DNA of 64,000 bases from Candidatus Levyibacteriota bacterium (lineage in GTDB: Bacteria; Patescibacteriota; Microgenomatia; Levybacterales; UBA12049), in assembly GCA_049519175.1 (NCBI GenBank), contig JBEKQZ010000001.1, positions 335,679 through 399,678 on the forward strand. Reading direction: 5' to 3'. The notes under the pieces were generated by a model. It had not been told where the DNA came from. It worked only from the letters and a program-made list of their open reading frames with translations, and made no database searches. A program made the position numbers and the translations under genes. Below, piece after piece: positions 1-28,685 of this stretch (the first letter of the stretch is position 1; each line of letters begins with the position of its first letter).

Positions 1-678
1 TATGACAAAGCCTCCGTTATTTCCTTAGGAATAATGGCTGCATGGACAGTGGCAATTTCGGGAGGATACAACACGCCCGTTTTTGCTTCAGGAATACTAT
101 TCTTATGCATATTTTTTTCATTGTATTATTTACTCAATTTAAATAAATCTCTTCAGACAATATTAACCAAAGTCTTAATCGTAATCCTAATTATTATTTT
201 TCCAATTTCCATAGCTAGTTTTTATTTTCTAAGAATTCATAATGTCTACGGCGAGCCTCGTCCGGCAACGCAGTTAACATATAGCGTTGAAAAATTATTG
301 CCGGGAGGAAAGAACATATTTGTTTCAAAAGAAATTTATGTAAAACTTAAGGATTTACAGCTGGCGGAACAAATCGCCAAAAAAGAAAATAAACCCTATG
401 CAATATTGCCGGCCTACGCCGGAATGTGGGTTAAATCCAAACAAGAAAATCCCCTACCGATGGACTTTCCTTTTATTACCAACAGCGAACAAGCTCTGGT
501 CCAGCCGTTAATGAAAGCTCTTAAAAAGGATAAAGGAAAAGTAATTATTATCGTAGATAAGTCCAGCTTAAGTCAACCAGAAGATTACTCAAGTGTGGCA
601 ATTTTCCCAATCTCGTTAATGCCTGGAAAATATTATCAAAAGCTCACCGAGACAAAGTATTTCGTTTTATATCAGTAA
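1..678 (+). CDS. Partial CDS (5' end outside window): C-terminal part of a polytopic membrane protein with an extracytoplasmic tail; function unknown, possibly another GT-C-like glycan-assembly protein
   Basis: Frame is open from base 1 through the annotated ORF 34..678, so the gene continues upstream. Several hydrophobic helices are followed by a soluble tail. No recognisable motif. Confidence 0.4.
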   Translation, partial: YDKASVISLGIMAAWTVAISGGYNTPVFASGILFLCIFFSLYYLLNLNKSLQTILTKVLIVILIIIFPISIASFYFLRIHNVYGEPRPATQLTYSVEKLLPGGKNIFVSKEIYVKLKDLQLAEQIAKKENKPYAILPAYAGMWVKSKQENPLPMDFPFITNSEQALVQPLMKALKKDKGKVIIIVDKSSLSQPEDYSSVAIFPISLMPGKYYQKLTETKYFVLYQ

Positions 679-1387
679 CCTTTATATTTAGATAAGTTTT
701 AAACAGCGATATAAGCATCTTGCTCCCATCACTGAAAACATTGTATTTCGATTTCCTAAGAATTTTCAGGTCATTTTTAACCGGTACTTCAACAACTTTC
801 AAACTAAATCTTTCGGAAAAAATTGCCAGTTGAGCGGAAAAGAAAGCGTTTTGACTGTCGCAATATTTAAGTAATGGAAGGATTACTTCTCTTCTCAAAA
901 AAACTGTTCCCTGGGTGTCTCCGACTTTGGTGTTAAAAAAGATTTTTAACAATTGACGGTAGATTTTAGAAGTAACTTTTCTAATAAACGGAGAATAAGT
1001 AATAGACTGGGGATGGGATTTTGAACCAAAAATAATATCATATCTGTCAGCTATTTTTAACATTTCTTTCAAATCCGAAAATCCAAATGGCAAATCAATT
1101 GCAGTTAGTAGAACATATTCTGCTCTTGTGTTAAAGATTGCCGTTTCCATTGCCAATCCGTGTCCTTTTTCTTTTAGCGTAATCACCTTTAAATTGTTGG
1201 CTGTAAATTTTCCTAGCTCTTTTAAGGTATTATCAGTGCTGCCATTCTCGACAATCAAAATTTCGTAGCTTTTCTTTTTTAAGATTCTCTCTAAACTTTT
1301 TTTTATCTCAATTATTTTAGAATGAATAATTTTTTCTTCGTTGTATACCGGAATACAAAAAGATAAATAATATTGATTATTTGGCAT
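644..1387 (-). CDS. Glycosyltransferase family 2 (Dpm1/polyprenyl-phosphate sugar transferase-like)
   Basis: N-terminus CIPVYNEE...ILIVENGSTDNT and a later DLPF..D block are the typical GT2 Rossmann/DXD architecture. TGA stop at 644-646. Confidence 0.85.
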   Translation of the reverse strand: MPNNQYYLSFCIPVYNEEKIIHSKIIEIKKSLERILKKKSYEILIVENGSTDNTLKELGKFTANNLKVITLKEKGHGLAMETAIFNTRAEYVLLTAIDLPFGFSDLKEMLKIADRYDIIFGSKSHPQSITYSPFIRKVTSKIYRQLLKIFFNTKVGDTQGTVFLRREVILPLLKYCDSQNAFFSAQLAIFSERFSLKVVEVPVKNDLKILRKSKYNVFSDGSKMLISLFKTYLNIKVTDIKRNTLSR

Positions 1388-1498
1388 TGTTTAAAATTAT
1401 TAGCTGATAGTTGTTACATTATAACAAAATATGCGAGCAACATTCTATCTGCTTGTGCCGTTTTAGGCAATGTCGTATACTTACAATCATTAAAAGTT

Positions 1499-2149
1499 AT
1501 GTTTACCGACAAAACAATTCTGGCAATTTCTCCTCATACCGATGACGTAGAGCTTGCCTGTGGAGGAGCAATAGCGGAGCTTACCGCTCATGGATCCCGC
1601 GTATATTATGTTGGTCTTTCGGATTGCCAAGACACATTAATCAATACCAGATTTCCAATCGATCAGTTAGCAAAAGAATGTAGGTCCGCTTTAAGAATTC
1701 TGGGAGTTAAAAATAAAGACATTTCTATTTTTCAACATCAGAATAAATTTTTTTGCCAGGATCCTAAGCAAATATTTAAGACTTTAGAGAAATTGCGCGA
1801 CAGTATCCAACCGGACCTTGTTTTAATTCCCGACGTTAATCAAACACATCAGGATCACAAAGTGGTTGCCGAGCAGGCAATTAGTGTTTTCAGAAGAAAA
1901 ACTTCGATGCTTTCCTATGAACAACCATGGAATGACTTGCAATTTACTCCTGATTTCTTTATTCAAATTTCCGCTAAATCGCTCTCTCTTAAAATGAAAG
2001 CCATAAAAACATACAAAACCCAAGTCGCTTTTAAAAGAGGTTACCTTTCCAAAGAATTTATTTATGGACTGGCTGCTGTCAGAGGTGTGCAGATAAACGT
2101 GCAATATGCCGAAGGATTTAAAGTGGTTAAGTTTATCGAAAAACTATGA
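1499..2149 (+). CDS. PIG-L/LmbE-family N-acetylglucosaminyl deacetylase
   Basis: ILAISPHTDDVELACGGAIA... is the PIG-L signature (HxDD, metal-binding). The ORF track starts at 1373, but the first 42 aa are non-conserved and overlap the divergent GT2 gene. ATG at 1499 is the likely start. Confidence 0.8.
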   Translation: MFTDKTILAISPHTDDVELACGGAIAELTAHGSRVYYVGLSDCQDTLINTRFPIDQLAKECRSALRILGVKNKDISIFQHQNKFFCQDPKQIFKTLEKLRDSIQPDLVLIPDVNQTHQDHKVVAEQAISVFRRKTSMLSYEQPWNDLQFTPDFFIQISAKSLSLKMKAIKTYKTQVAFKRGYLSKEFIYGLAAVRGVQINVQYAEGFKVVKFIEKL

Positions 2150-3216
2150 GGGAGTTAAAAATTCTTCTAACAGGCAGTGGTGCGCCCGGATGGGTGAGTA
2201 TTTATAGATGTTTAAAAGCCGCCGACAGAAATTTGGAAATTTTAGGTTGTGATATTTCTTCTAAAACCGCAGGCGGATACATTGCCAAGAAATCATTTAC
2301 TGTCTCTCCGGGAAATTCACCCAAATATATCGGCGAATTACTTTCTCTTTGCGTTAAGGAAAAAGTGGATGTTGTTTTACCGATTACCGACGCGGAATTA
2401 TTGCCGTTGGCAAAAAAGAGCGGTTTGTTCGAAAAGAAAGGAATTAAAATTTGCGTTTCGTCAGTTGCCTCTTTACAGATAGCCGCCGATAAATTATCTC
2501 TTTTTCGATTTTTAGAAAAAAACGGTTTAGGGAACCCTCAATATCAATTGGTAAATTCATGGAAAGGTTTCGTCGTAGCGATAAAAAAACTGGGATATCC
2601 CAAGAAAGCGGTTTGTTTTAAACCAACTATTTCTTGGGGAAGCCGCGGCTTCCGTATTCTTGATCCAAAAATTAATGCTTATACTATTTACATTCAGCAG
2701 AAACCAACCAGCGTCTACACTTCTTTGGAAGAAATGGAAAGAATCCTCAATCAGGCAAAACAGTTCCCACAGTTATTAGTGATGGAATATTTGCCGGGAG
2801 ATGAATATACTGTTGATGTTTTTGTATCTCAAGGACAAGCGCTTTTTGTTATTCCCAGAAAGCGTATTCAAACAACGGGTGGCATTACTACGGAAGGAGT
2901 AGTTGAAAATAATAAAGAAATAATTGCGTTAAGTAAAAAGATAATTGAGAAGTTGGGACTAAATTATTCGGTCGGCGTGCAACTTAAATATAGCATCAAT
3001 GGCAAACCAAAAGTTCTGGAAGTAAATCCCCGCTTGCAAGGGACATCGGTTATTTCTTTTGCAGCTGGAGTAAATTTACCATACCTAACCATTTTGCAAT
3101 CTCAAGAAAAGAAATTACCCAAAATAAAAATTAAATATGGTATCCATATGTACCGCCATTGGGAAGAGATATTCATAAAGAACAAAAAAGTTATTAAAAT
3201 ATTTAATGAAGATTAA
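2146..3216 (+). CDS. ATP-grasp domain ligase (carboxylate-amine ligase, PylC/CPSase-like)
   Basis: Central and C-terminal ATP-grasp blocks (..EYLPGDEYTVDVF.., ..LEVNPRLQGTSV..). Start overlaps the deacetylase stop (ATGA). Confidence 0.7.
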   Translation: MRELKILLTGSGAPGWVSIYRCLKAADRNLEILGCDISSKTAGGYIAKKSFTVSPGNSPKYIGELLSLCVKEKVDVVLPITDAELLPLAKKSGLFEKKGIKICVSSVASLQIAADKLSLFRFLEKNGLGNPQYQLVNSWKGFVVAIKKLGYPKKAVCFKPTISWGSRGFRILDPKINAYTIYIQQKPTSVYTSLEEMERILNQAKQFPQLLVMEYLPGDEYTVDVFVSQGQALFVIPRKRIQTTGGITTEGVVENNKEIIALSKKIIEKLGLNYSVGVQLKYSINGKPKVLEVNPRLQGTSVISFAAGVNLPYLTILQSQEKKLPKIKIKYGIHMYRHWEEIFIKNKKVIKIFNED

Positions 3217-3826
3217 TTGGAGTTATCATATTCATACTAGTTATACGCATGGGCAGAATTCTGTTGAGCAAATTGCCGCATATTGTAAAAAGCTGAAAAT
3301 ACAGGAAATTGCGATTACCGAGCATGTCCGCCGTAAACCTTCTTATCAATTTAATAAATTACGTAATGACATTATTAATGCAGCGGAAAAACATGACATT
3401 CAAATATTTACAGGAATCGAAGCAAAAATTCTTCCCGACGGTTCATTGGACGCGCCAATAGATATCCTTTCTAAAGCGGACGTCGTTATTGGTTCCGTAC
3501 ATAGTTGGCCGGAAAATAAGAGCTTAATGGATGCATATACGCTGCTTGTCAAATCGCCGGCAACAATTATCGGACATCCGAAAATAGTGAATGAAGGACT
3601 TATCAGATTGCTCATTAAATATAAAAAGGTAATGGAGGTAAGTTATAAATATCCATTAAATGATAAGCAATTATGTTTAATACAAAAATTTCCTAAATTG
3701 AAGCTGTCGTTTGGAACTGACGCGCATCAATTAGCGGATATCAAAAACGCCCAAGAATATTTCTATGAAATAAGCAAAAAATATAATTTTACAAATCAAC
3801 TTTGGAAAATTGGCAAAAAAGTATAA
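3206..3826 (+). CDS. PHP-domain phosphoesterase (histidinol-phosphatase/CpsB-like)
   Basis: N-terminal HIHTSYTHG...ITEH metal-binding His motifs of the PHP family. Overlaps upstream gene by 11 nt. Confidence 0.65.
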   Translation: MKINWSYHIHTSYTHGQNSVEQIAAYCKKLKIQEIAITEHVRRKPSYQFNKLRNDIINAAEKHDIQIFTGIEAKILPDGSLDAPIDILSKADVVIGSVHSWPENKSLMDAYTLLVKSPATIIGHPKIVNEGLIRLLIKYKKVMEVSYKYPLNDKQLCLIQKFPKLKLSFGTDAHQLADIKNAQEYFYEISKKYNFTNQLWKIGKKV

Positions 3827-3858
3827 AAATTAAACTGCCCGCGTTTTTAAAAAGTGCG

Positions 3859-3887
3859 TTGTTTACTGACAATAGCTATACTATAAT
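3859..3887 (+). promoter_or_regulatory. Sigma70-like promoter TTGTTT-N17-TATAAT, 6 nt upstream of the ATG at 3894 (possible leaderless transcript)
   Basis: TTGTTT at 3859-3864, 17-nt spacer, perfect TATAAT at 3882-3887. No Shine-Dalgarno fits between -10 and ATG. Confidence 0.35.
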
Positions 3888-3893
3888 ACGGAA

Positions 3894-4850
3894 ATGAATG
3901 TTGCGGTGATAGGCGTCGGACAAATGGGCAGGACTCATGCTAGAACATACGCTGGGATGAAAGATGTATCTTTGGTCGCAGTCTCCGATCTAAACGTCCA
4001 ACTTGGCGAAAAAACAGCCAGAGAATTTAAGACAAAATTTTATCAGGATTATAAACAGATGCTCCAGATGGAAAAAATCGATGCGGTCTCAATCTGTGTT
4101 CCTACGAAGTTTCATTATGAAGTAGCAAAATATACTATTAATAATAAGCTTAATACCCTGTTGGAGAAACCAATCACAATGGATGTTAAAGAAGGATATA
4201 ATTTGTTGGCTATGGCAAAAAAAAATAGGGTAAAGTTTCTGGTCGGGCATATTGAAAGATTTAATCCGGCAGTAATAAAAGTTAAGGAAATGATAGCCGC
4301 AAAAGAATTGGGAGAAATTATTGCGATTATGTCACGCCGCGTCGGAGGCTTCCCTCCACAAATTGACGATGCAAATATCGCCGTTGACTTATCGATTCAT
4401 GATATTGATGTCGTTAACTATTTGCTGGGCGATAGTCCGAAAAAAGTTTATGTCAATAAACAGAAAAATCATATTACTCAAAGAGAAGATTCAGTCGAGT
4501 TTTTTCTAAAATATAAAAAAGCGTCGGCATTTTTGCAAGCTAATTGGGTAACTCCGGTAAAAATTAGGAAACTGAATATTACCGGTAAAGAGGGTTACTT
4601 GGAGATGGATTACATTACACAAGAAATAACCTACTATAAAAGTAATTACCGTAAATTTAAAAAAAGATATAAAACTTTTTCGGATTACGTGTTGGAATTT
4701 TCTAAACCTAAAAAAACAAAAGTTTTAGTCGAAAAAAAAGAACCGTTAAAAGAAGAAATTACGTATTTTTTGAATTGCGTTAGGGAAAATATTCGGATTA
4801 ATTCGCAATTTGCGGTCGAAGCGCTCAAAATTGCATTAACAAATAACTAG
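3894..4850 (+). CDS. Gfo/Idh/MocA-family NAD-dependent sugar-nucleotide oxidoreductase (WbpB-like)
   Basis: N-terminal Rossmann MNVAVIGVGQMGRTHA and an EKP motif. TAG stop at 4848-4850 immediately followed by the next ATG. Confidence 0.85.
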   Translation: MNVAVIGVGQMGRTHARTYAGMKDVSLVAVSDLNVQLGEKTAREFKTKFYQDYKQMLQMEKIDAVSICVPTKFHYEVAKYTINNKLNTLLEKPITMDVKEGYNLLAMAKKNRVKFLVGHIERFNPAVIKVKEMIAAKELGEIIAIMSRRVGGFPPQIDDANIAVDLSIHDIDVVNYLLGDSPKKVYVNKQKNHITQREDSVEFFLKYKKASAFLQANWVTPVKIRKLNITGKEGYLEMDYITQEITYYKSNYRKFKKRYKTFSDYVLEFSKPKKTKVLVEKKEPLKEEITYFLNCVRENIRINSQFAVEALKIALTNN

Positions 4851-5345
4851 ATGATACACAAAACAGCCGATATCCATAGCACAGCGAAAATTGACAAAAC
4901 CAGTTCGGTTTGGAATTGGGTTAAGGTTCGGGAGAAGGCGGTTGTCGGTAAGAATTGCATATTGGCTAAAGGAGTTTACGTTGGGAAAAGAGTTTTAATT
5001 GGTGACAATGTCAAAATCCAAAATAACGCCTCAATTTATGAGGGAGTGACTATAGAAGACGGTGTATTTATTGGTCCGCACGTAGTTTTTACCAATGACA
5101 AGTATCCGTCGGCAATAAATGCTCAAGGCAAAATAAAAAGTGAAAAAGATTGGAAACTCGAAAAAACAATTGTGAAACAGGGAGCGTCAATTGGCGCTAA
5201 TGCAACTATTTTACCGGGAATCATAATAGGTAGATGCGCAATGATCGGAGCCGGTTCCGTTGTGACAAAGGATGTTCCTGATTTTGGACTTGTTTATGGT
5301 AATCCGGCAAAACTGATTAAAAAACTGAAGAGGAGTCATAAATGA
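4851..5345 (+). CDS. Hexapeptide-repeat (left-handed beta-helix) sugar N-acetyltransferase (WbpD/WbbJ-like)
   Basis: Repeated [LIV]G.N..I hexapeptide units throughout. Sits between the oxidoreductase and the aminotransferase. Confidence 0.8.
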
Positions 5346-6430
5346 TTGCGATATCAAAGCTTGAATTAGGTAGAGAAGAGTTGTTAGCAGTATCGAAAGT
5401 AATAAAATCAGGAAATCTGACTCAAGGGAAAAAAGTGGCAGAGTTTGAGCAGGCTTTTGCAAAGTTTATTGGAGCAAAATATGCCGTGGCAGTTTCCAGC
5501 GGAACTAGCGCACTTTATCTAAGCCTATTGGCTTTAGGTATTGGTAAAGGTGACGAAGTCATCACTACGCCATTTAGTTTTATTGCTTCTTCCAATGCCA
5601 TTCTTTACACAGGAGCCAAGCCGGTTTTTGTGGACATAGATGAAAAAACTTTTAATATAGATACTAAATTGATTGAAAGGAGAATCACTAAAAAAACAAA
5701 AGCTATTCTGCCCGTGCATCTTTATGGTCTGCCGTGCGACATAAAAAATATCATAAGCATTGCCAGAAAACACCAGCTGTTTGTAATTGAAGACGCTTGC
5801 CAAGCCCATGGTGCTTCGTTTGGAAATCAAATGGTAGGGACTTTTGGAAATCTTGGTTGTTTTTCTTTTTACGCTACAAAGAATATGACCACGGTTGAGG
5901 GAGGTATGATTACAACCAACAGTCAAAAATTAGCGGAAAAATTACTGTTATTAAGAAACCATGGTTCTAAAATAAAATATCAGCATGAAATTCTTGGATA
6001 TAATTTTAGGATGACTGACCTTAACGCCGCAATGGGCTTAGAACAATTAAAAAAACTGCAGAATTCTAATAAGATTAGAGTTAACAATGCCAGCTATCTT
6101 ACGCAGCATTTGTCAAAAAATAAAAACCTTGAAGTTCCTTTTGTTCCGCCCGAGTTTTCTCATGTTTTTCATCAGTATACAATCCGGTTAGGCGAAAGTA
6201 TCAATCGCACCAAGATAATTGCAGCTTTAGATAAAAAGGGAATACAAACAGGAATTTATTATCCAATCCCAATTCACAAACAAAAACTTTATCAATCCCT
6301 GGGATTTAAAGATAAACTTCCTGTTGCCGAGAAAGCGGCTCAAGCAGTATTATCTTTGCCGGTTCACCCATATTTAACCAAGACAGAACTTAAGCGAATC
6401 GTTTCCGCGCTTTCTTCAATTTTGCAATAA
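5342..6430 (+). CDS. DegT/DnrJ/EryC1/StrS-family PLP-dependent sugar aminotransferase (WbpE-like)
   Basis: Family-typical blocks: [40 protein letters not shown] (Lys-PLP region). ATGA overlap with upstream gene. Confidence 0.9.
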
Positions 6431-8189
6431 GCGTTGGATTTTTGCAGAAAACAAAGATGGTATAGCTTAAAATAGCTATTAGCGCTAAGATAAATCCAGA
6501 TTTCAAGATTTGCAGTATTGGTGGGTCTTTGTAGGCAACCATAATTTGTGTTTTGCCTTTGGGAATAGTAAAAGTAATGATGCCGGGATATCTTTTGTTA
6601 GTAAAATTAATCTCCGTTTGCTTTCCGTTAACGCTAACTGTCCAACCCGGATAATATAAAGTATTTTCTTTTAATACTGCGTCTCCTGTAGAGTTTACAG
6701 AGTAAAAATGCTTTGTGGATGTAATACTTAACACTTTTATTTCTGCTTGTCCTTTTAGCGTATCGATTTTACTGTCTGGAATTTTGTTAATCCAAACCGG
6801 CTGGTTACTAAACCAGATGCTATTTGCGATGTAATTTAGTCCCTCTCCTTGGTAGGTACTTAAAGGAAGGTTGTTTATCAATTGCGTGTCTGTAATTTGC
6901 GGAATGACTCTCCTGTTCCCCCAGTTTAAAATTGTAGAGCTGATAGCTAAGCCGATTACCAGCCAAACGATAACTTTTCTATTTCTATTTATAAGCGCGA
7001 AATAACCGGCAGCAAAGGAAATACCAAGTGTTATGACTGAAAGTATCCGACTACTCATCAATACATTCTTAAGCATTGGGGTGTTGAGCCAAATTATTGA
7101 GGAATATGGTGTGAGCATAAAGATTAAAAAGGCAGTCGTAGCTAACCAAATCGTAACTTCCATTGCGTATCTTGCTTTGGTCTTTTTAAGCAAGAGGTAA
7201 ACTAAAAGATATCCGAGTATAAAAAGTTGAGCATAGCCGATAAGATATGACAACTCTCCCTTTGGTCCTTGAAACAACAATCCGTATCTCCATGGTGAAT
7301 AAAGCAACTCTCTGACGCTAATAAAGCTTGGCAGTGCGTTAAAAAGCGTGGAAGACAGGTTGTATTTGGCAAAGATTAAATACGGTAACCAAACATAACT
7401 TGAAATTAGAATACCCAGTAAGAAAGCGGCTGCCAGTTTCATCCAAAGCCGAATTTGTCGTATTCTTTCTTGATTTTGCAAAAACTGAATTAATAAAAAG
7501 GCAACGATAGGAAAAAGAGCTAATAACGCAATTGCCTGATGTGACATTATCAAAAGAGCAAAACTTAATGCCGTCCAGAAAATGTAGACGATAGCCCCCC
7601 GCTTAAAAAGCCGGTAGGTAAAAAATAGCAAAAGCGGAATAAGTGTAAAGCAGAGAATCTCTCCGACATCGATTCTGAAATGTAAATCTACGAAGTGGTA
7701 AGGCATAAACAGATAAAAAATAGAGGAAGTGAAGGCCGCTAAATCATTTTTAAGCGTTTCTTTTGCCAAAAGATACATAAATAGCCCCGAGAGTATGTAA
7801 GCTAATGCAATGAAGATTTTCATGCTAGCAATAAACGAAAAATTCAAAAAATGAAAAAAGGAAATCAAATAATAGGGGAGTGGATTAAGAAAGACGAATA
7901 GGGGATACCCATAGGTAGCATTCAATTTCCCCGCCCATGATGGTAGTAAATTGCCGTCAACGAGATTCTGATAAAAAGCGATCGCTCTGTAAATGTGTAA
8001 GTTGAAATCCCCGCTTTCATAAACACCGGCTCTTAGTAAGCTTACGAGAGGCAGAAACGAAATGATAAGTAAAAAAATGAATAAATTAATTTTTCTTTTT
8101 GGGAAAATATACCGGTAAAAAAACGCTACTCCAAAGACCAGTAAGCAACCGATAAAATTAATAAATACCATTTGATAAGGTCCAATCAT
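6390..8189 (-). CDS. Large polytopic membrane protein with C-terminal extracytoplasmic domain; putative GT-C-fold glycosyltransferase or glycan polymerase
   Basis: About 12 predicted hydrophobic helices in the first ~430 aa, then a soluble ~170-aa domain. Overlaps the 3' end of the aminotransferase gene by 41 nt, convergently. Confidence 0.45.
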   Translation of the reverse strand: MIGPYQMVFINFIGCLLVFGVAFFYRYIFPKRKINLFIFLLIISFLPLVSLLRAGVYESGDFNLHIYRAIAFYQNLVDGNLLPSWAGKLNATYGYPLFVFLNPLPYYLISFFHFLNFSFIASMKIFIALAYILSGLFMYLLAKETLKNDLAAFTSSIFYLFMPYHFVDLHFRIDVGEILCFTLIPLLLFFTYRLFKRGAIVYIFWTALSFALLIMSHQAIALLALFPIVAFLLIQFLQNQERIRQIRLWMKLAAAFLLGILISSYVWLPYLIFAKYNLSSTLFNALPSFISVRELLYSPWRYGLLFQGPKGELSYLIGYAQLFILGYLLVYLLLKKTKARYAMEVTIWLATTAFLIFMLTPYSSIIWLNTPMLKNVLMSSRILSVITLGISFAAGYFALINRNRKVIVWLVIGLAISSTILNWGNRRVIPQITDTQLINNLPLSTYQGEGLNYIANSIWFSNQPVWINKIPDSKIDTLKGQAEIKVLSITSTKHFYSVNSTGDAVLKENTLYYPGWTVSVNGKQTEINFTNKRYPGIITFTIPKGKTQIMVAYKDPPILQILKSGFILALIAILSYTIFVFCKNPTLIAKLKKARKRFA

Positions 8190-8253: not shown

Positions 8254-9480
8254 ATGAAAACTTCTCTAATCTGTACGGTTGTAAACGAGGAAAAAACAAT
8301 TGCTGATTTTTTAAGTTCTATTTTCAATCAAACAAAATTGCCCGACGAAATAATAATTGTTGACGGCGGTTCAAGGGATAATACTATAGCTAAAATTTCC
8401 AATTTCCAATTTCCAATTTCCAAAAAGAAACTGCCAAATATCAAACTTTTGTTCAAAGTTGGAAACCGGTCGGTTGGTAGAAATGAGGCAATTAATAAAG
8501 CCACCGGAGATATAATTTTAATTTCCGACGCAGGTTGTATCTTGGACAAAAACTGGGTGAAAAATATTACCGCTCCCTTTTCGAATAGAAAGGTTGATGT
8601 AGTTGCGGGTTATTACAAAGGAGACGCAAAAAATATTTTCCAAAAATGTCTTATTCCTTATGTTTTAGTGATGGAAGATAAGCTGGTAGAAAATGATTTT
8701 TTGCCGGCAACCAGATCAATGGCTCTTCGAAAAACAGTTTGGAGAAAAGTAGGAAAATTCGATGAAAAACTTTCGCATAACGAGGACTACGCTTTCGCCA
8801 ACAAATTAAAAAAACACAAAGCGGAAATATTTTTTTGTAAAGACGCGGTTGTTAATTGGATTCCTAGAGCAAATTTAAAACAGGCTTTTGTTATGTTTTT
8901 TCGCTTTGCGTTGGGCGACGCAGAGGCAAAAATTTTTCGGGGTAAAGTAGTTTTCATTTTCCTAAGATATCTGTCTGCAATTTATTTACTTACACTTTGC
9001 TTAATTATGCACTCCGTGTTTCTTTGGATAATCTACATTTTTCTGGTTCTTCTATATGTCAATTGGACGATCTTAAAAAATTACAAATACGTCAATAACA
9101 TTAAGGCGTTTATATATTTACCCTTGTTGCAAATTACGTCGGACATCGCAGTCATGTCCGGTACAACGTATGGTCTAATTAAATTACCAGGGAATAATAT
9201 TAGATTTGTAAGAAGATCAAATAATGAATTTAAAAAGGTAATTATAAAAACGATTTTTGTCTACTTACTATCCATGGCTATTTTATTCGCCGGTTTCAGA
9301 AAGATAAGAGCCTTAATTCCACCGCCTGAAATATCGGAAGAAAAACTGGTAGGTTACGCGCAGTATTTTGGTTATCCGTTATCCTATGACACATATATTT
9401 TCATAGTAATAATACTGCTGCCGATTATTATTCTTATATTCTTCTCCTTTAAAATAAGAACAAATGAAAAGAGTAATTAA
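8254..9480 (+). CDS. Glycosyltransferase family 2 with C-terminal transmembrane segments
   Basis: ICTVVNEEKTI...IIVDGGSRDNT and a DAG block give the GT2 core. Contains the heptanucleotide repeat at 8394-8421. Confidence 0.8.
   Translation: MKTSLICTVVNEEKTIADFLSSIFNQTKLPDEIIIVDGGSRDNTIAKISNFQFPISKKKLPNIKLLFKVGNRSVGRNEAINKATGDIILISDAGCILDKNWVKNITAPFSNRKVDVVAGYYKGDAKNIFQKCLIPYVLVMEDKLVENDFLPATRSMALRKTVWRKVGKFDEKLSHNEDYAFANKLKKHKAEIFFCKDAVVNWIPRANLKQAFVMFFRFALGDAEAKIFRGKVVFIFLRYLSAIYLLTLCLIMHSVFLWIIYIFLVLLYVNWTILKNYKYVNNIKAFIYLPLLQITSDIAVMSGTTYGLIKLPGNNIRFVRRSNNEFKKVIIKTIFVYLLSMAILFAGFRKIRALIPPPEISEEKLVGYAQYFGYPLSYDTYIFIVIILLPIIILIFFSFKIRTNEKSN
8394..8421. repeat. Perfect tandem heptanucleotide repeat (AATTTCC)x4 inside the GT2 coding sequence
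   Basis: Units at 8394-8400, 8401-8407, 8408-8414 and 8415-8421. The unit length is not a multiple of 3. Confidence 0.9.
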
Positions 9481-11470
9481 TTTCTTAAAAAGCAACACGG
9501 ATTTATTGTTGGTATTCATTATTTCAACCGCTTTATCATTCGAGAATTTTTTGGAGATATGCACAGGATACCTACGCTACATGCGTTATGATCTACAACT
9601 AAATTTATTGTGGAATTATACGCAAATTACTCATCTAATTCCTTACAGAGATATCTACTATCCATATGGACTCCTGCGTTATTTTAGATTGGAGAATAAT
9701 GTTATTTCGTTATGCTATTACCTGATTATCCCGGTTCTTTTTACTATTCTTTACTTTATTCTTAAAAAAATTATCCAAGAGCGATTTTATAGGTATTTAT
9801 TCATTGCATTTATTGTATTTTTTGTTCTAAGATTTTCATATTTTGAAACGTTTACCCGTTATGGCTTATTTGCAGTATTATCGTTGTTTTTTACTTACGT
9901 GATTTATAGGTATGGTAAATATTCAAATAATTATACATTTCTTCCAGGAATACTCATAGGAGTGGTGATGTCTTTAATTAATGACCAGGGTTTATACATG
10001 TTTTTTGTGTTTTTGGGATTATTGGCATTCGATGCGATTGTAAAAATCAATAAAGGAGTGGTTTTTAATAGATACTTTATTAGCGCTTTCATAAGAAAGT
10101 TTCTCATGCTGGCACTTGGTATTTTTATAGGTATACTCCCTGTCTTAGTTTATTTATATTCCCGAGGCGGACTAGTCGAGTTTTTTCAATTTCCTTACAT
10201 AATCTCCCAGGTTGCAATCGTCGCTAAGGGTCCATTTTTTAATTATATACTTTATCCGGACAATCGCTTTACTTTAACTATTTTATTATTAGCCATTTTC
10301 ACAGTCATGATTAAACTGATTTTTTATAGACATAAGACAAGCTTGTTCTGGTATGTTGAAGCAGCTTTAATCTTGGCACTCTGTATTTTGGAGCAAAAAA
10401 GCATAATCAGGTCGATTGATTCCCAAATTACTTTTATCGCCTTTATTTTATTATTATTTTTAATTTACGATTTTATCGTTTGGTTTAAGCTAGATAAATC
10501 TCATCGGTTAGCCGGGAAAATAATCTATCTAGCGCTACCGTTGGTGGTTATAATGTTTTGGGGCCTATCGCCCTCATCAAATTTAAACACGAGCATAAAT
10601 AGTATGTTTAATAATTTTAGAGACGTTTATTCGAATACTTGCTTTAATACCGGTTTGATGAATAGTTATTCATCAAAGAATAATGATTACGTTAAAATTG
10701 TTAACTTACTAAAGAGTCAGCCGATATTTAACGGAAAGATTTATGCGTATCACCCAGGAGATTCTACTTTCTATATTTTACTGAAGCAAAAACCACCATA
10801 TTTTGACGGAGTTTTTGAAGATAATTCTGTTTCCACTCAAGAAAAAATGATTCAATATATAAAAGCAAACAATATTGAATATGTAACCTTAGACTTAAGC
10901 AAGGACTCCTTGCAAGACGGAGTGCCTCATTACATAAGAGAACCGATTGAATTTAAATATATTCTTAACAATTATTCCCCCTGGTTAATAATTGGGAATC
11001 ATTTAATCTTAAGAAAAAGTAGTCAGGATTTTTTTAGTGAACAATTACTTAATAAGATTTCTTTATATAAAAAGTATCTTTTAAGTGTTAACTTAGCAGT
11101 GATTCCCTTTTCGGAAGGATTTTATAAGTACCGTTATTTTACATTAGCGCCGTTAATTAAGACTAACAACGTAACTATTATAAATAATTTTCTTAAAAGA
11201 CAAAAAATGTCATCAGCGAATAAAGTGTTTGTTTTAATACCCAATAAGGAATTGAAGACTGTGTCACAAAATTACTTAAATCTAAGAACAAGTGATGGAA
11301 AAGAAACAGTTATTTATTTTAACGCTTGTAAGGTAAATAAACCATGTATAATAGACCTTTCAAATATACCGCTTTTTTACAAAAATAGGCAAATAAGCAG
11401 TTTATGCGTTGATAATAATTTTAAAGGAGATATCGAAATCTACAATATTAGTCTTAAGATTTTGTGGTAG
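9464..11470 (+). CDS. Large polytopic membrane protein (N-terminal ~370 aa multi-helix, C-terminal ~300 aa soluble domain); function unknown
   Basis: Hydrophobicity pattern only. Start overlaps the upstream GT2 stop. Confidence 0.4.
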   Translation: MKRVINFLKSNTDLLLVFIISTALSFENFLEICTGYLRYMRYDLQLNLLWNYTQITHLIPYRDIYYPYGLLRYFRLENNVISLCYYLIIPVLFTILYFILKKIIQERFYRYLFIAFIVFFVLRFSYFETFTRYGLFAVLSLFFTYVIYRYGKYSNNYTFLPGILIGVVMSLINDQGLYMFFVFLGLLAFDAIVKINKGVVFNRYFISAFIRKFLMLALGIFIGILPVLVYLYSRGGLVEFFQFPYIISQVAIVAKGPFFNYILYPDNRFTLTILLLAIFTVMIKLIFYRHKTSLFWYVEAALILALCILEQKSIIRSIDSQITFIAFILLLFLIYDFIVWFKLDKSHRLAGKIIYLALPLVVIMFWGLSPSSNLNTSINSMFNNFRDVYSNTCFNTGLMNSYSSKNNDYVKIVNLLKSQPIFNGKIYAYHPGDSTFYILLKQKPPYFDGVFEDNSVSTQEKMIQYIKANNIEYVTLDLSKDSLQDGVPHYIREPIEFKYILNNYSPWLIIGNHLILRKSSQDFFSEQLLNKISLYKKYLLSVNLAVIPFSEGFYKYRYFTLAPLIKTNNVTIINNFLKRQKMSSANKVFVLIPNKELKTVSQNYLNLRTSDGKETVIYFNACKVNKPCIIDLSNIPLFYKNRQISSLCVDNNFKGDIEIYNISLKILW

Positions 11471-11488: not shown

Positions 11489-12736
11489 TTAAATAATCTT
11501 AAAGCCGGGTTCAATCAGGATAAATTTGCCTCCGTTGCTTTTGAACTTCCTATTTTTCTCAATAATTTCCTTACTGAAATTCCAGGCAAAAATTAGAAGA
11601 TAATCAGGTTTAGTTTCATAAATTTTATCTTCTGCATAGATAGGAATATGTGTTTCCGGAGTAAATAGGCCCTGTTTATACGGTGTTGAATCAACGATGT
11701 AATCGATTATCTTAGAGCCTATGCCAAAATAGTTAAGCAGTACATTTGCTTTTGCTGCGGCACCGTAGCCCACAATTGTTTTTTTAGATTTCTTTAATTT
11801 TATAAGTTTTTTGACCGTATTTATTTTAAGTTTTTCAACTCGTTTTGCGAATTCAATATAGGCATTAATTTCGTGCAGTCCGAATTTTTTTTCTTCATAT
11901 AATAACTTGTTAATAATATTTGTTCTTACTTTTATTTTTGTATTTTTCTTCTTTTTCCAAAATACCCTTAATGAGCCGCCGTCCAAATCGCTCTTTTGTA
12001 TGTCAAATATTTCCAGGGAAGAATCTTTTGCTAAATACATAAGAGACTTGACGCTAAAATAAGATAAATGTTCATGGTAGATGGTGTCGAACAAATTTTT
12101 TTCTAAAAGATCGTAGGAATAGGGAAAATGCATTACAAAAATTCCATCATCATCAAGAAGAATTTCTCCTCCCTTAATTACTTCATGAAGGTCTGGAATA
12201 TGTGCGATGACATTGGTTGCGGTAATAGCTTTGGCTTTGCCATATTTTTTAACAGCTTTCTTAGCAAGCGTAGAATCGAAATATCCAAGGATCGTTTCTA
12301 CGCCATTTAAGTTAGCGATTTTTACTAGATTTTCAGCAGGGTCAATCCCCAAAATTTTCATTCCAATGTTTTTAAAGCAAACCAAAAGGCTTCCATCATT
12401 ACTGCCGACGTCAATCACTAAAGAATTTTTCCTAAGCTTGCTAATTTTAGCGATTTCTTTCGCCATCTGTTTAAAATAATTAATCCTCGTCTTAGATGCA
12501 GATGGAATATATAAATAATTACCAAACATTATTTTTGAGTTCACTAAATATTTTAATTGCATTAGGGAACAGTTTGAGCAGAAACAGACGGAAAGCGCAT
12601 ATCTTGGTTCTTTTTGCTTTAAGTCTTCTTTTCTAAGAAACCCATTCGGGATCGGTTGTTCTCCCAAATCTATAACGTCCAAGAGCTTATTAGATCCGCA
12701 AATTCTGCATTTTTTTACCGTTATTAAGTTGATCAT
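11489..12736 (-). CDS. NDP-hexose C-methyltransferase-like protein (N-terminal Cys4 zinc ribbon + SAM methyltransferase + C-methyltransferase C-terminal domain; TylCIII/NovU-like architecture)
   Basis: CRICGS...CSNCS zinc ribbon at the N-terminus. SAM-binding block LVIDVGSNDG. Length ~415 aa matches the sugar C-methyltransferase family. Confidence 0.75.
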   Translation of the reverse strand: MINLITVKKCRICGSNKLLDVIDLGEQPIPNGFLRKEDLKQKEPRYALSVCFCSNCSLMQLKYLVNSKIMFGNYLYIPSASKTRINYFKQMAKEIAKISKLRKNSLVIDVGSNDGSLLVCFKNIGMKILGIDPAENLVKIANLNGVETILGYFDSTLAKKAVKKYGKAKAITATNVIAHIPDLHEVIKGGEILLDDDGIFVMHFPYSYDLLEKNLFDTIYHEHLSYFSVKSLMYLAKDSSLEIFDIQKSDLDGGSLRVFWKKKKNTKIKVRTNIINKLLYEEKKFGLHEINAYIEFAKRVEKLKINTVKKLIKLKKSKKTIVGYGAAAKANVLLNYFGIGSKIIDYIVDSTPYKQGLFTPETHIPIYAEDKIYETKPDYLLIFAWNFSKEIIEKNRKFKSNGGKFILIEPGFKII

Positions 12737-12753
12737 ATATTAAGATAATTCTC

Positions 12754-14016
12754 CTATATTACTGTAAATTTTGGTAGGGGAAAAATAAAATGGCCCCCGT
12801 TGTCTAAATATTTTTTCTCCCTTTGTAGAAATTCTTGCTTAAAAAACCAAGGTAGCACTAACATGTAATCTGGTTTTTCTTTTCTCGCCTGTTCCTCAGA
12901 AATAATTGGAATTCCCATGGAAGATATCATCTTGCCCCATTTCTCTGGGTTTCTTTCTACAGCCTTTTTAATCAGCGTATGGTCTAATTTAAAATATTGG
13001 AGAAGAGTATTTCCTCGGGTTGACGCTCCATAAAGATAAATTAATTTCCCTTTTTTACTTTCTTTCTTGACGAAATTTAGGATTTTTTCTTTATTATTTT
13101 TTATTTTTTTAGCAAAATTTAGATAAACTTTTCTATTATTTAGTTTAAGTCTTTTTTCCTGACTTTCCATTTTCAGAACTGCTTTGGTTATTTTTCTTTT
13201 TCCCTTCGTTGTAATATAGGTTCTGAAACTACCTCCATTAAGTTCTCTTTCTTCTAAATCAAAAACCTCCAGATTATGTTTTTCCAGCAAATTATTTAAA
13301 GATAAGAGAGAATAATATTCAAGGTGCTCGTGGACAATATTATCGAAAGCGCTTTGCTTTAGCATTTCAACCAAGTAGTTTTGTTGAATTATAAAAATTC
13401 CATCGTCTTTCATAATTTTTTTTACGTCTTCAATAAATTTGTTTGGTTCTGCCATATCATAGAAACAAGATATTGCTGTGACTATGTCAGCTTTTACATC
13501 TTTGACAACTTTTTGATAAGAGGCATAACTAAAAAAGTCATTAATTACTTTATTGGTATTTTTCTGAGATTCTTTTGCAAATTTCGTTATTGGCTCAACG
13601 GCAATCCTGTAGATATTTTTAGGATAATTTTTTAATAAAGTGCCATCATTTGCGCCGATGTCGACAACAACAGTATCTTTAGTTTTAGTCTTTATTCTCT
13701 TAAGTGCTTTTTGTGTAATTTCTTTAAGTTCGTTTTGCATAGTTTGATTAATGTCGGATTTATAACCATATCTTTCTGTGTAAAGATATTTTGCGGGCGT
13801 AGTGTAATCTAATTGAACAAGAAAGCATTTTTTACAAAGGACAATGCTAAGGGGAAAGGAGCGAGGTTTTCTATTAATTTTTGTAAAATCGGATAAATAT
13901 TGATTTCCTAAGGAAATAATATTAATTAAGTTTTTGGAATTGCAAGATCGACATTTTTTGATTTTCATCTCTGAGGCAGTCGGTCTATTATAGCCTTTAA
14001 AATCCTGAAATTTCAA
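12754..14016 (-). CDS. NDP-hexose C-methyltransferase-like protein, paralog of 11489..12736
   Basis: CRSCNS...CKKC zinc ribbon and VVVDIGANDG SAM block. Same length and collinear similarity to the adjacent gene. Confidence 0.75.
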   Translation of the reverse strand: MKFQDFKGYNRPTASEMKIKKCRSCNSKNLINIISLGNQYLSDFTKINRKPRSFPLSIVLCKKCFLVQLDYTTPAKYLYTERYGYKSDINQTMQNELKEITQKALKRIKTKTKDTVVVDIGANDGTLLKNYPKNIYRIAVEPITKFAKESQKNTNKVINDFFSYASYQKVVKDVKADIVTAISCFYDMAEPNKFIEDVKKIMKDDGIFIIQQNYLVEMLKQSAFDNIVHEHLEYYSLLSLNNLLEKHNLEVFDLEERELNGGSFRTYITTKGKRKITKAVLKMESQEKRLKLNNRKVYLNFAKKIKNNKEKILNFVKKESKKGKLIYLYGASTRGNTLLQYFKLDHTLIKKAVERNPEKWGKMISSMGIPIISEEQARKEKPDYMLVLPWFFKQEFLQREKKYLDNGGHFIFPLPKFTVI

Positions 14017-20395: not shown

Positions 20396-22573
20396 ATGAA
20401 ACTATCAATAATAGTCGTTAATTATGAGGTTAAAGAAAAAGTTTTAGAGTGTATAAAGTCAATCTATGATGCCAAATCAAAAACCGAGTTTGAAATAATT
20501 GTAGCTGATAACGGGGACACAGAAAGCATCCAGAATGTATTAAAAAAATATTTCCCAAAAGTGATTTATGTCAAAAGTCACAAAAACCTCGGCTATGGTG
20601 GGGGAAATAACTTGGGAGCAACTTACGCTAGGGGTAAATATTTATTTATTCTAAATCCCGATACTTTGGTTTTTAAAAATACGCTTGACGAATTGGTAAA
20701 ATTTCTTGATAAAAATCGAGACGTTGGAATTGTTTCCCCGCTGTTGGTAGACGAGGATAAAAATCCGTTTGCACTTCAGGGAGCAAGAGAATTAACTCCG
20801 TTTAGAGGCATTGTCTGCCTATCGTTTATTGATAAATTGTTCCCGAATAATCATTTTTCCAGAAAGTATTGGTTAAAAGATTGGAAGCACACGCAACTTA
20901 AAGAGGTAGATGTTTGTCCGGGAACCGCATTTATGATTTCAAAAAAGTTATTTAATGAGTTTGGTGGTTTTGACGAGAAGTTCTTCCTCTATTTTGAGGA
21001 GAATGATATTTCTAATCGCGTCAGAAGGTTGGGTTATAAAATATATATACTGACGAAAGCAAAAATATTTCATGAAGTTGGTGCCAGCACAAAGCAGTTA
21101 CAAAATTCCAATTATTTTTTTTTGAAAAGCAGGTACTTATATTTTAAAAAGTACTATGGAATTACAAAAGCCCTGTTGGTTGAGTCCTTTTTGAGGATTA
21201 ATAAGCTATCTTTGCTTATATTTTTTACGTTTTGCTTAGCGTTCTTCTTGCGAATTTATAATTTAACCAATGGAATGGAATTTATCGGCGATCAGGGCTG
21301 GTTTTATATATCGGCTAGAGATTTTTTAATTCACGGGAAGATTCCATTAGTCGGTATTACCTCCAGCCACATTTGGCTGCATCAAGGACCATTGTGGACC
21401 TATATGCTTTCAATCGCGTTACTATTATCTAAATTCAATCCGGTTTCTGGGGCGTATCTGACAGTTTTATTTGGTATAGCAACGACTTTTCTGATGTATG
21501 AATTGGGCAAAGAAATGTTTTCGCAAAAGGTTGGATTAATAGCGGCTTTATTATACGCAACGTCACCTTTGATAGTATCTTTTGACCGGATGCCGTTTGA
21601 CCCAAGTCCGATTCCTTTTTTCACGGTTTTGTATCTGTTCTCGTTAGTAAAATGGCTAAAAGGAAATTTAAATTATTTTCCCGTAATACTTTTTCTATTG
21701 GCTATTCTTTATAATTTGGAGCTGGCGACGTTTACCTTAGCTTTTCCGTTTGTTCTAATTTTTGTTTATGGTCTATTTAAACAATCAGGTTGGGTAAAGG
21801 GGTTACTAAATAAAAAAACAGTATCTTTTTCAATTCTTCTTCCAGTTCTGGTGATGCTGCCGGTTATAATTTATGATTTTTCGCATGGTTTTAAACAAAC
21901 TGTAGTATTTTTGGGTTGGACTTTATATAAGCCATTTAGCTTTCTTTTTAAACATTCGTCAACCAATCTAATTACTAATTTAAAGGTTATTGCCGATTTC
22001 GGACTGATAAATTTACAAAGATTACTTTTTCTAGATAGTGTTTTGTTCTCGTTATTGTTGTTTGCGGCCGGTGTATGCCTACTGTTCTTTCAGGTTTTTA
22101 AAAACAGAAAGCTAAACGATGCGAAATCAATCTTGCTGCTTCTACTAACAATTTCGCTTCTGGGAATAGTCGTAAATCAGACACCTTCAGATGCTTATCT
22201 TCCAATTGCTTTTCCTTTCGTCATTTTCGTATCCGCTATTTTATTTGAATACTTATTTAAAATTAGATTTTTAAAATTGATTGTTGCGATTGTGTTAATT
22301 TTAGTTGTTTTATTAAACTCTTGTGAAATTTTTAGAAATGATTTGACAGCCGAACTAAAAGATAGAATTAGTAGCGCCAATAAAATAATTATGCTTGCGG
22401 ATAATCAAAAATATAATTTAATCGGTAGGGGAGTCGGTAGTCAGTTTAGTAGTTTTACTATGAATTATGAATACTTATTATGGTGGAAGGGCCATCCTGT
22501 TTCGAATGAAAACGTTAGAACTAAAATCGTTGTGTGGGAAACGTCAAAAGGAATTATAATATATAAGCAGTAA
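20396..22573 (+). CDS. Fusion protein: N-terminal GT2 glycosyltransferase domain + C-terminal GT-C-type polytopic membrane domain (ArnT/PMT-like)
   Basis: GT2 core LSIIVVNYEVKEK...ADNGDT...DED in aa 1-250. Then ~470 aa with ~11 hydrophobic helices. A T9 homopolymer lies at 21115-21123. Confidence 0.7.
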   Translation: MKLSIIVVNYEVKEKVLECIKSIYDAKSKTEFEIIVADNGDTESIQNVLKKYFPKVIYVKSHKNLGYGGGNNLGATYARGKYLFILNPDTLVFKNTLDELVKFLDKNRDVGIVSPLLVDEDKNPFALQGARELTPFRGIVCLSFIDKLFPNNHFSRKYWLKDWKHTQLKEVDVCPGTAFMISKKLFNEFGGFDEKFFLYFEENDISNRVRRLGYKIYILTKAKIFHEVGASTKQLQNSNYFFLKSRYLYFKKYYGITKALLVESFLRINKLSLLIFFTFCLAFFLRIYNLTNGMEFIGDQGWFYISARDFLIHGKIPLVGITSSHIWLHQGPLWTYMLSIALLLSKFNPVSGAYLTVLFGIATTFLMYELGKEMFSQKVGLIAALLYATSPLIVSFDRMPFDPSPIPFFTVLYLFSLVKWLKGNLNYFPVILFLLAILYNLELATFTLAFPFVLIFVYGLFKQSGWVKGLLNKKTVSFSILLPVLVMLPVIIYDFSHGFKQTVVFLGWTLYKPFSFLFKHSSTNLITNLKVIADFGLINLQRLLFLDSVLFSLLLFAAGVCLLFFQVFKNRKLNDAKSILLLLLTISLLGIVVNQTPSDAYLPIAFPFVIFVSAILFEYLFKIRFLKLIVAIVLILVVLLNSCEIFRNDLTAELKDRISSANKIIMLADNQKYNLIGRGVGSQFSSFTMNYEYLLWWKGHPVSNENVRTKIVVWETSKGIIIYKQ

Positions 22574-28680: not shown

Positions 28681-28685
28681 AATTT

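Follow-up and report, generated by a model that had tools for sequence, protein, structure and literature searches.

What might three overlapping genes accomplish together when they encode a predicted sugar deacetylase, a ligase and a phosphoesterase and lie in the midst of genes for a surface glycan? The question is raised by positions 1499 to 3826 of a 64-kb stretch of DNA, hereafter the window, from a Candidatus Levyibacteriota bacterium (candidate phyla radiation, CPR/Patescibacteria). An earlier note on this DNA had read the PIG-L, ATP-grasp and PHP genes of this triad as a branch that decorates an amino sugar with an amino acid. In the present analysis, the triad was found to recur in distant bacteria and archaea, and the cassette probably exchanges the N-acetyl of an amino sugar at the cell surface for another acyl group, with substrates and an order of steps that we infer from the families involved.

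The three open reading frames (ORFs) were confirmed on the forward strand. The first (1499..2149, +) encodes a PIG-L/LmbE-family zinc de-N-acetylase of 216 amino acids (aa) (Pfam PF02585). The second (2146..3216, +) encodes a 356-aa ATP-grasp carboxylate-amine ligase of an uncharacterised "PRK12767-like" family (Pfam ATPgrasp_Ter, ATP-grasp_3 and PylC-like_N), and the third (3206..3826, +) a 206-aa stand-alone PHP-family metal-dependent phosphoesterase (Pfam PF02811). The translational coupling claimed in the earlier note is borne out by the overlap of the frames, as read from the sequence: the stop of the PIG-L gene and the start of the ligase gene share the 4 nt ATGA at 2146-2149, and the ligase and PHP frames overlap by 11 nt at 3206-3216. 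The PIG-L gene realistically begins with the ATG at 1499, because a TTG-initiated ORF from position 1373 would overlap the divergent family 2 glycosyltransferase (GT2) gene upstream, and because the orthologue in a close relative (locus L084) is also 216 aa long.

The PIG-L protein scored 64.8 bits against PF02585 (cut-off 28.2). Its best-matching curated model is that of BshB1 (TIGR04001, an equivalog), for which 83.6 bits against a cut-off of 182.5 place it below equivalog level. Its sequence relatives in the Protein Data Bank (PDB) are 2ixd, diacetylchitobiose deacetylase and BshB1. Across 36 orthologues the motifs PHTDD (H13, D15 and D16) and HQDH (H117, D119 and H120) do not vary; they line up with those of 2ixd and BshB1 and fit the family pattern (A/P)H(x)DD plus HxDH. 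By these features the protein is a member of the PIG-L/LmbE de-N-acetylase family and a predicted deacetylase.

The ligase is 100% identical to a deposited protein of a metagenome-assembled genome, and its AlphaFold2 (AF2) model has a pLDDT of 94.3. It scored above the Pfam cut-offs for ATPgrasp_Ter (114.3 bits, cut-off 29.1), ATP-grasp_3 (57.8, cut-off 23.2) and PylC-like_N (44.8, cut-off 27). When the model was searched with Foldseek, 2pn1 came first, followed by PurT, PurK, biotin carboxylase, PurD, PylC and RizA at 13-20% identity, with a probability of 1.00 for 2pn1, PurT, PurK and biotin carboxylase. The first of these, 2pn1, is an uncharacterised structural-genomics protein and also the sole sequence relative of the ligase in the PDB. 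Residues K159, E292, N294 and R296 do not vary among 73 sequences; by analogy, K159 would be the central-domain lysine, and E292-x-N294, as Mg ligands, and the following R296 would belong to the ATP/Mg2+ residues. E214, R238, R240 and R337 are invariant as well, as is G12-x-P14 inside the N-terminal glycine-rich loop TGxGAPG. The profiles, the three-domain fold and the conserved residues show that the ligase is a member of the ATP-grasp superfamily.

The earlier note had allowed that this protein might cluster with the housekeeping clades of carbamoyl-phosphate synthase (CPS) or biotin carboxylase, and model scores, size and structure matches all speak otherwise. As a candidate CarB it reached 23.3 bits against 1027 for TIGR01369 and 22.1 against 599 for PRK05294. 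It is a single module of 356 aa, compared with a duplicated protein of ~1050 aa for CarB and ~450 aa for biotin carboxylase, and its identity to structures of biotin carboxylase and CPS is 13-18%. Its best curated matches are the uncharacterised PRK12767 "carbamoyl phosphate synthase-like protein" models, and against the five sub-models it remained below every cut-off (best scores 156.7 against 390 and 148.2 against 218), and these scores place it in a subfamily distinct from, yet related to, the PRK12767 equivalogs. The family is large: among the indexed candidates, over 3,500 proteins match at E <= 1e-10.

The third protein scored 46.3 bits against PF02811 (cut-off 26.4) and carries the full canonical set of metal ligands (H8, H10, H40, E72, H99, H124, D172 and H174), which are invariant across orthologues. 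Its AF2 model (pLDDT 95.5) is closest in fold to the PHP domain of PolX, YcdX and histidinol-phosphate phosphatase, with TM scores of 0.76-0.81 to PolX-PHP and YcdX. It fell short of the HisJ family model TIGR01856 (32.3 bits, cut-off 90.2), and the TM score to the structures 2yxo and 4gyf is only 0.68. With its profile match, its distorted TIM-barrel fold and all metal ligands in place, it is a PHP phosphoesterase. PHP domains are also found in the window at the C-terminus of a PolX (45487-47256, -) and at the N-terminus of a DnaE (34914-38144, -). An origin of the stand-alone gene as a recent copy of the PHP domain of this PolX was ruled out, the two being only 25% identical.

Is the triad more than three neighbours? 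Conservation was examined in 80 species-representative loci with relatives of the ligase (given here by L numbers), in which partners were identified with phmmer, neighbouring ORFs were clustered and a ligase tree was drawn. The counts rest on 77 ATP-grasp loci, one genome per species, about 50 of them outside a derived Chitinophagaceae clade. In 42 of these ~50 loci a phosphatase gene lies directly downstream of the ligase gene (PHP in 18 and HAD in 24), and in ~40 of them a deacetylase gene lies beside it (PIG-L in 35, and in 5 more the CE4-like family c18 described below). The exact order PIG-L, ligase, PHP was found in Patescibacteria, Peptococcaceae, Lachnoclostridium phytofermentans, Anaerocolumna, Anaerolineaceae, Arcobacteraceae, Methanophagales and Methanosarcinales, and Hadarchaeum has the triad with a rearranged gene order. 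When the search was started from the PHP protein, its homologues again adjoined the same type of ATP-grasp gene, once in reversed order. No fusion of an ATP-grasp domain with PHP or PIG-L (Rosetta-stone protein) was present among the homologues listed. Recurrence as a unit, on which the earlier note had made its idea depend, was therefore observed across Patescibacteria, Bacillota, Chloroflexota, Campylobacterota, Methanosarcinales, Methanophagales and Hadarchaeum. A gene neighbourhood that returns in dozens of species representatives, drawn from several phyla and from Bacteria as well as Archaea, is not due to chance.

The Chitinophagaceae clade (L021, L027, L062 and ~24 others) is nested within the Bacteroidota group that has PIG-L, ligase and HAD genes, and its ligase genes have lost both partners. 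Their conserved block (for instance L062:2844-10557) consists of an enolase-superfamily gene, a beta-barrel-like gene, a UbiD-like decarboxylase gene that overlaps the ligase gene, the ligase gene itself and a TraB/GumN-like gene.

The main finding lies at the phosphatase position. In Bacteroidota, where a family 4 glycosyltransferase (GT4) gene usually comes first, the order is PIG-L, ligase, HAD, and in haloarchaea it is c18, GT2, ligase, HAD; in both groups a HAD-superfamily phosphatase occupies the position of PHP. That one and the same place in the operon is taken by two unrelated phosphatase folds argues for phosphomonoester hydrolysis as an integral part of the pathway, and the phosphatase step appears closely tied to the ligase. 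The removal of a phosphate by the PHP enzyme, one of the options given in the earlier note, gains support from this exchange.

The same observations bear on whether the three proteins share a pathway at all. They could be mere neighbours in a glycan cluster, with a CpsB/Wzh-like PHP protein that controls the export of polysaccharide as a phosphotyrosine phosphatase. Capsule loci of Gram-positive bacteria commonly include tyrosine phosphatases of the PHP family, and the CpsB-type tyrosine phosphatase Cps4B does occur among the fold matches of the PHP model, at rank 32 with an E value of 3e-4. However, the fold is far nearer to PolX-PHP, YcdX and HisJ than to Cps4B, HAD small-molecule phosphatases take the place of PHP, the overlapping frames are conserved over bacterial phyla and archaea, and a BY-kinase was not found among the annotated cluster genes. 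We consider this explanation very improbable.

The deacetylase position has a second occupant. Family c18 comprises proteins of ~250 aa with no Pfam or NCBIfam match (for instance L019:6573-7343, L001:9234-9956, L031:6501-7277 and L005:6094-6831). Its members share an invariant RHDVD, an HxxxxH and further histidine residues, and match the CE4 peptidoglycan deacetylase profile weakly (E 0.04). In bacteria and haloarchaea alike, their genes always lie just upstream of PIG-L or of the ligase. The sequence features make c18 a probable deacetylase. In four Firmicutes/Chloroflexota loci, WbpA-B-D-E-like genes are followed by c18 and then by the triad.

What sugar would such a cassette act on? The triad lies inside a low-GC surface-glycan cluster of ~28 kb in the first part of the window, in agreement with the earlier note; around it are genes for GT2 enzymes, one GT4, GT-C-like membrane proteins, PMT_2-type proteins, a Wzx-type flippase, Wzy_C, RmlC, C-methyltransferases and an epimerase. 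Starting 68 bases downstream of the triad, three tightly packed genes encode a GFO/IDH/MocA oxidoreductase similar to WbpB and UDP-GlcNAc 3-dehydrogenase (3894..4850, +; Pfam GFO_IDH_MocA), a WbpD-like left-handed beta-helix (LbH) N-acetyltransferase (4851..5345, +; 85 bits to Hexapep and 94.8 bits to the NeuD/PglB/VioB family) and a WbpE-like DegT/DnrJ/EryC1 sugar aminotransferase (5342..6430, +; Pfam PF01041, 445 bits). The LbH gene abuts the GFO gene and overlaps the DegT gene by 4 nt. The GFO protein scored 294 bits against NCBIfam NF040723, the archaeal UDP-GlcNAc 3-dehydrogenase, below the cut-off of 450. By their sequences, the three resemble WbpB, WbpD and WbpE and would together make a GlcNAc derivative with a 3-amino or 3-acetamido group.

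Two further genes flank this module and are possible parts of it. A small GT2 gene, divergent from the triad (644..1387, -; Pfam GT2), encodes a polyprenyl-phosphate sugar synthase-like protein whose top NCBIfam matches, weak throughout, are without exception polyprenyl-P glycosyltransferases (PgfS, ArnC, Dol-P hexose transferase, AglJ and PpgS). Convergent on the DegT gene, a gene for a GT-C-like polytopic membrane protein (6390..8189, -; Pfam PTPS_related and PMT_2) could encode the final transferase; its position is kept in L084, and a PMT_2 protein is also found nearby in L086. The block consisting of the divergent small GT2 gene, PIG-L, ligase, PHP, GFO, DegT and GT-C is kept in the close CPR relatives L084 (74% identical) and L085 (58%). 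GFO follows the triad in both relatives and stands upstream of it in L019, L031, L034 and L049, and DegT co-occurs with GFO and the triad in relatives. The hexapeptide (LbH) acetyltransferase gene between GFO and DegT is missing in L084 (L084:9736-11778), and in that genome the 3-amino group might be left unmodified or might serve as the ligase's own target. Searches by tblastn with family representatives revealed no UDP-sugar 6-dehydrogenase, Asn-synthase-like, FemAB-like (VimA), CE4-like (VimE) or HAD gene in the 64-kb window. A scan of positions 1300-6600 for promoters and terminators gave no enrichment over shuffled sequences and is uninformative on the limits of the operon.

Taken together, these features are best explained by a cytoplasmic "acetyl-swap" module that would act on a GlcNAc-derived sugar of a surface glycan by de-N-acetylation, ATP-dependent N-acylation and dephosphorylation, a scheme to which we give an even chance of being correct. 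By homology with WbpB, WbpE and WbpD, the GFO, DegT and LbH enzymes would first turn UDP-GlcNAc into a 3-amino or 3-acetamido derivative. PIG-L would then, as its family does, strip the 2-N-acetyl group and leave a free amine. The substrates of characterised PIG-L/LmbE enzymes are GlcNAc glycosides, for the most part alpha-linked and made by retaining GT4 enzymes, and not nucleotide sugars, so the deacetylation probably comes after the transfer of the sugar to a lipid or glycan acceptor, which the divergent ArnC-like GT2 or a GT4 would perform. Known pairs of glycosyltransferase and deacetylase are PIG-A/PIG-L, MshA/MshB, BshA/BshB and the aminoglycoside glycosyltransferase/deacetylase, and the GT4 gene found immediately 5' of PIG-L in many loci matches these pairs, in which GT4 precedes PIG-L. 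GT4, PIG-L, ligase, phosphatase is in fact the commonest architecture; the window itself has no GT4 gene adjoining the triad. The ATP-grasp enzyme would next make an acyl phosphate from a carboxylate and join the acyl group to the new amine. Finally, as the exchange of PHP for HAD suggests, the phosphatase would take off a phosphomonoester that one of the substrates had carried through the ligation. The carrier is most likely a phosphorylated acyl donor, for example O-phosphoserine, giving an N-seryl group, or phosphoglycerate, giving an N-glyceroyl group.

The idea of a phosphorylated donor draws on the Campylobacter jejuni HS:2 capsule, where the TupA-like ATP-grasp enzyme Cj1438C uses ethanolamine-P or serinol-P before the phosphatase Cj1435 takes the phosphate off (PMC11800379). 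As in our scheme, an ATP-grasp enzyme forms an amide, a phosphatase clears the phosphate of the co-substrate and the sugar stands in a growing surface polysaccharide. In that system, however, the sugar (GlcA) gives the carboxylate and the small molecule gives the amine, the ATP-grasp enzyme belongs to another subfamily and there is no deacetylase. The cassette could nevertheless work in the Campylobacter manner, the ligase coupling the C6 carboxylate of a hexuronic acid, possibly 2,3-diacetamido-substituted, to a phospho-amine (ethanolamine-P, serinol-P, Ser-P or Thr-P) before the phosphatase acts, with PIG-L as a separate decoration. Cj1438C/Cj1435 is a direct ATP-grasp and phosphatase precedent for this uronic-acid amidation (PMC11800379), and a UDP-sugar 6-dehydrogenase is encoded in the same cluster in L001, L011, L014, L019, L031, L034 and L049. 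Against it, such a dehydrogenase is absent from the window and none was seen in L084 and L085, and the tight coupling of PIG-L to the ligase would be left unexplained. L008, L017, L064 and L083 already possess a WbpS-like (Asn-synthase-like) amidotransferase that would act on the same carboxylate, and the TupA-like family does not appear among the Pfam matches of our ligase at E <= 0.01. Uronic-acid amidation is in our opinion unlikely.

The proposed acetyl exchange has its closest published counterpart, in outcome, in the Wbp/Vim system of Porphyromonas gingivalis and Tannerella forsythia. There, WbpA, WbpB, WbpE and WbpD produce UDP-GlcNAc3NAcA, removal of the 2-N-acetyl group is the proposed task of the CE4 enzyme VimE, and the FemAB-like VimA adds Ser or Gly; together with WbpS and VimF, these enzymes produce the sugar that links cargo of type IX secretion (T9SS) to lipopolysaccharide (LPS) (PMC7468200). 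The cassette resembles this system in its surface-glycan setting and an associated GT4, and would also resemble it in the start from UDP-GlcNAc, the putative WbpB/E/D-type enzymes and the replaced 2-N-acetyl group. It differs in having PIG-L rather than the CE4 enzyme VimE, an ATP-grasp enzyme rather than the FemAB-like VimA, and a dedicated phosphatase, and the window is without WbpA, WbpS, VimA-like and VimE-like genes. The cassette is thus an analogue, and not a member, of the Wbp/Vim system.

Both kinds of machinery may occur side by side. In Lachnoclostridium phytofermentans (L031:10007-16162), and likewise in L034 and L049, the triad is directly followed by a gene for a geranylgeranyl-reductase-like flavoprotein and then by a GT2 gene, two FemAB-like Acetyltransf_6 genes (VimA-like), a DUF354 gene and a weakly CE4-like (VimE-like) gene. 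Since the Vim-like genes lie a few genes downstream, these three loci combine acylation machineries of the Vim type and of the ATP-grasp type in one cluster. In L085, the glycan cluster that carries the triad also carries a second, separate, translationally coupled pair of genes for a PIG-L protein and a Formyl_trans_N formyltransferase (L085:3611-5178), an apparent deacetylate-then-formylate counterpart that parallels the re-acylation design.

Thiol biosynthesis offers a further comparison. The mycothiol and bacillithiol pathways (MshA/A2/B/C and BshA/B/C) also combine an alpha-GlcNAc glycoside made by a GT4, a PIG-L/LmbE deacetylase and an ATP-dependent amino-acid ligase, and mycothiol synthesis includes a phosphatase as well. 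Their ligases differ, being the Cys-tRNA-synthetase-like MshC or BshC and not ATP-grasp enzymes; their products are soluble thiols, and the context of the cassette is glycan assembly. A pathway built on the same plan would have GT4 place GlcNAc on a phosphorylated acceptor, the phosphatase take the role of MshA2, PIG-L deacetylate and the ATP-grasp enzyme, as an analogue of MshC or BshC, add an amino acid, the product being of low molecular weight and soluble or lipid-bound, and not the repeat unit of a glycan. The commonest architecture covers all four mycothiol activities, the nearest curated model of PIG-L is that of BshB1, and in Bacteroidales the operon has a conserved site next to glyS. 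In the window and its close relatives, however, the triad is surrounded by genes for Wbp-like nucleotide-sugar enzymes, a flippase, Wzy_C and GT-C proteins, and no GT4 gene adjoins it in the window. The Bacteroidales loci also carry a flippase, a YfhO-like GT-C and further GT4 genes, and the PIG-L and GT4 proteins score far under the cut-offs of BshB, BshA, MshA and MshB. We hold a thiol-like small product to be quite unlikely.

The Bacteroidales loci are of interest in themselves. In L025, L030, L046, L047 and L050, the operon of GT4, PIG-L, ligase and HAD lies directly downstream of the glycyl-tRNA synthetase gene glyS, and is followed by more GT4 genes, a methyltransferase gene, a flippase gene and a YfhO-like GT-C gene. 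This conserved position suggests a conserved core glycoconjugate and not a variable capsule. Bacillota loci (Alicyclobacillus and B. dakarensis) were also considered as true bshA/bshB1 neighbourhoods and rejected, with 27 bits against 274 for GT4 and 43 against 183 for PIG-L.

Lipid-linked sugars provide another parallel. In the Arn (ArnC/ArnD/ArnT), FlmF2/NaxD/FlmK and PpgS-type systems, a small GT2 loads polyprenyl phosphate with an N-acylated amino sugar, a deacylase frees the amine while the sugar is on the lipid, and a GT-C enzyme transfers the sugar on the outside. Likewise, genes for an ArnC-like GT2 and a GT-C protein flank the module in the window, and a deacetylase is part of it. Those systems stop at the free amine and employ CE4 or YdjC deacylases, whereas the window inserts an ATP-grasp enzyme and a phosphatase, which implies re-acylation.

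ATP-grasp enzymes of glycan operons have been connected with such N-acylation before. Pyl, the ATP-grasp enzyme of UDP-yelosamine biosynthesis in Bacillus cereus ATCC 14579, N-acylates a UDP-amino sugar according to papers that cite the work of Hwang et al. 2014 (PMC11626204; PMC8987622 ref. 100). By these accounts it likewise forms an amide from a free carboxylic acid and the amine of an amino sugar; it differs in acting on a 4-amino group made by an aminotransferase, with 2-oxoglutarate as donor, and the accounts report no deacetylase or phosphatase. No B. cereus protein was present in the best 120 matches of the search with our ligase or of that with the Bacillaceae member of its family. 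In C. difficile, an ATP-grasp gene is genetically required for the peptidylamido sugar of type B flagellin (PMC5207246). No direct description of the triad or of any characterised member of the ligase family was found in the literature, and the statement of the earlier note that the combination is not a textbook pathway holds within what was searched. Since analogues are known, the chemistry is not categorically new; it is the enzyme combination that is uncharacterised and widespread.

Several points weigh against acetyl exchange, or against parts of it. The database names across the ligase family are generic throughout, in keeping with a family uncharacterised biochemically. Gene order is no proof that the amine freed by PIG-L would be the nucleophile of the ligase. 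Some loci, for instance L004, L043 and L048, have a ligase and a phosphatase with no recognisable deacetylase, or a ligase and PIG-L with no phosphatase, and in the Chitinophagaceae clade the ligase is found in an unrelated context. The phosphorylated species could be the acceptor and not the acyl donor, and in L084, which has no LbH gene, N-3 rather than N-2 could be acylated. Finally, PurT, PurK and biotin carboxylase take tiny carboxylates (formate and bicarbonate), and the likeness of the modelled ligase to them suggests that something other than an amino acid could supply the acyl group. Of the proposal in the earlier note, the logic of deacetylation followed by acylation gains support from the deacetylase beside the ligase in ~40 of the ~50 loci outside the Chitinophagaceae clade, from the formyltransferase pair of L085 and from the Wbp/Vim precedent (PMC7468200); the acyl group may or may not be an amino acid.

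The remainder of the window completes the picture of the cluster. Its G+C content is ~0.31-0.37 over positions 1-28000 and ~0.39-0.44 over 28000-64000. A tRNA-Thr gene at 28686-28760 (-) marks this boundary; the listed GTG start of the ORF 27961-28713 overlaps the tRNA, and its true start is probably further downstream. Within the glycan cluster, tandem paralogous sugar C-methyltransferases of Methyltransf_13/14 architecture (11489-12736 and 12754-14016, -) imply branched-chain or C-methylated sugars. The cluster also includes two large polytopic membrane proteins of 668 and 589 aa with no Pfam match (9464-11470 and 23310-25079, +), a membrane protein of 214 aa, likewise with no Pfam match (34-678, +), and a GT2-PMT_2 (GT-C) fusion ORF (20396-22573). 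The rest is housekeeping, with ATP synthase, DnaE, GatA/B, PolX and a MurT/GatD pair (a Mur-ligase-like protein and a CobB/CobQ-type amidotransferase; 41942-43974, -) that indicates amidation of the peptidoglycan stem peptide.

Non-acetyl N-acyl groups are widespread on the amino sugars of O-antigens, capsules and S-layer and flagellin glycans, and the enzymes that add them are mostly unidentified. For the linking sugar of Prevotella intermedia, the pathway adding alanine has been stated to be unknown (PMC11969387). A deacetylase, an ATP-grasp enzyme and a phosphatase make a compact, recognisable and testable candidate for such N-acylation, and the cassette is carried by thousands of genomes that range from CPR bacteria to haloarchaea and relatives of methanogens, including cultured carriers (Lachnoclostridium phytofermentans, Breznakiella homolactica, Halorubrum and Alicyclobacillus tolerans). 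What is new is the phosphatase finding, that is, the presence of HAD in the position of PHP in Bacteroidota and haloarchaea. This exchange predicts a phosphorylated intermediate, an unusual and checkable mechanistic trait.

A bolder proposal goes further. The cassette might be a hitherto unrecognised bacterial and archaeal route, enzymatically independent of Vim, that adds aminoacyl or hydroxyacyl groups (for example seryl via phosphoserine) to GlcN-type residues, with a free amine or hydroxyl on the added group that could anchor surface proteins. We regard this proposal as a long shot. If it were true, there could be alternative T9SS "linking sugars" in Bacteroidota that lack VimA and VimE, and a handle for sortase- or archaeosortase-type anchoring in CPR bacteria and archaea. 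The surfaces of CPR bacteria are essentially uncharacterised, and the cassette predicts that they bear a non-standard amino-sugar decoration.

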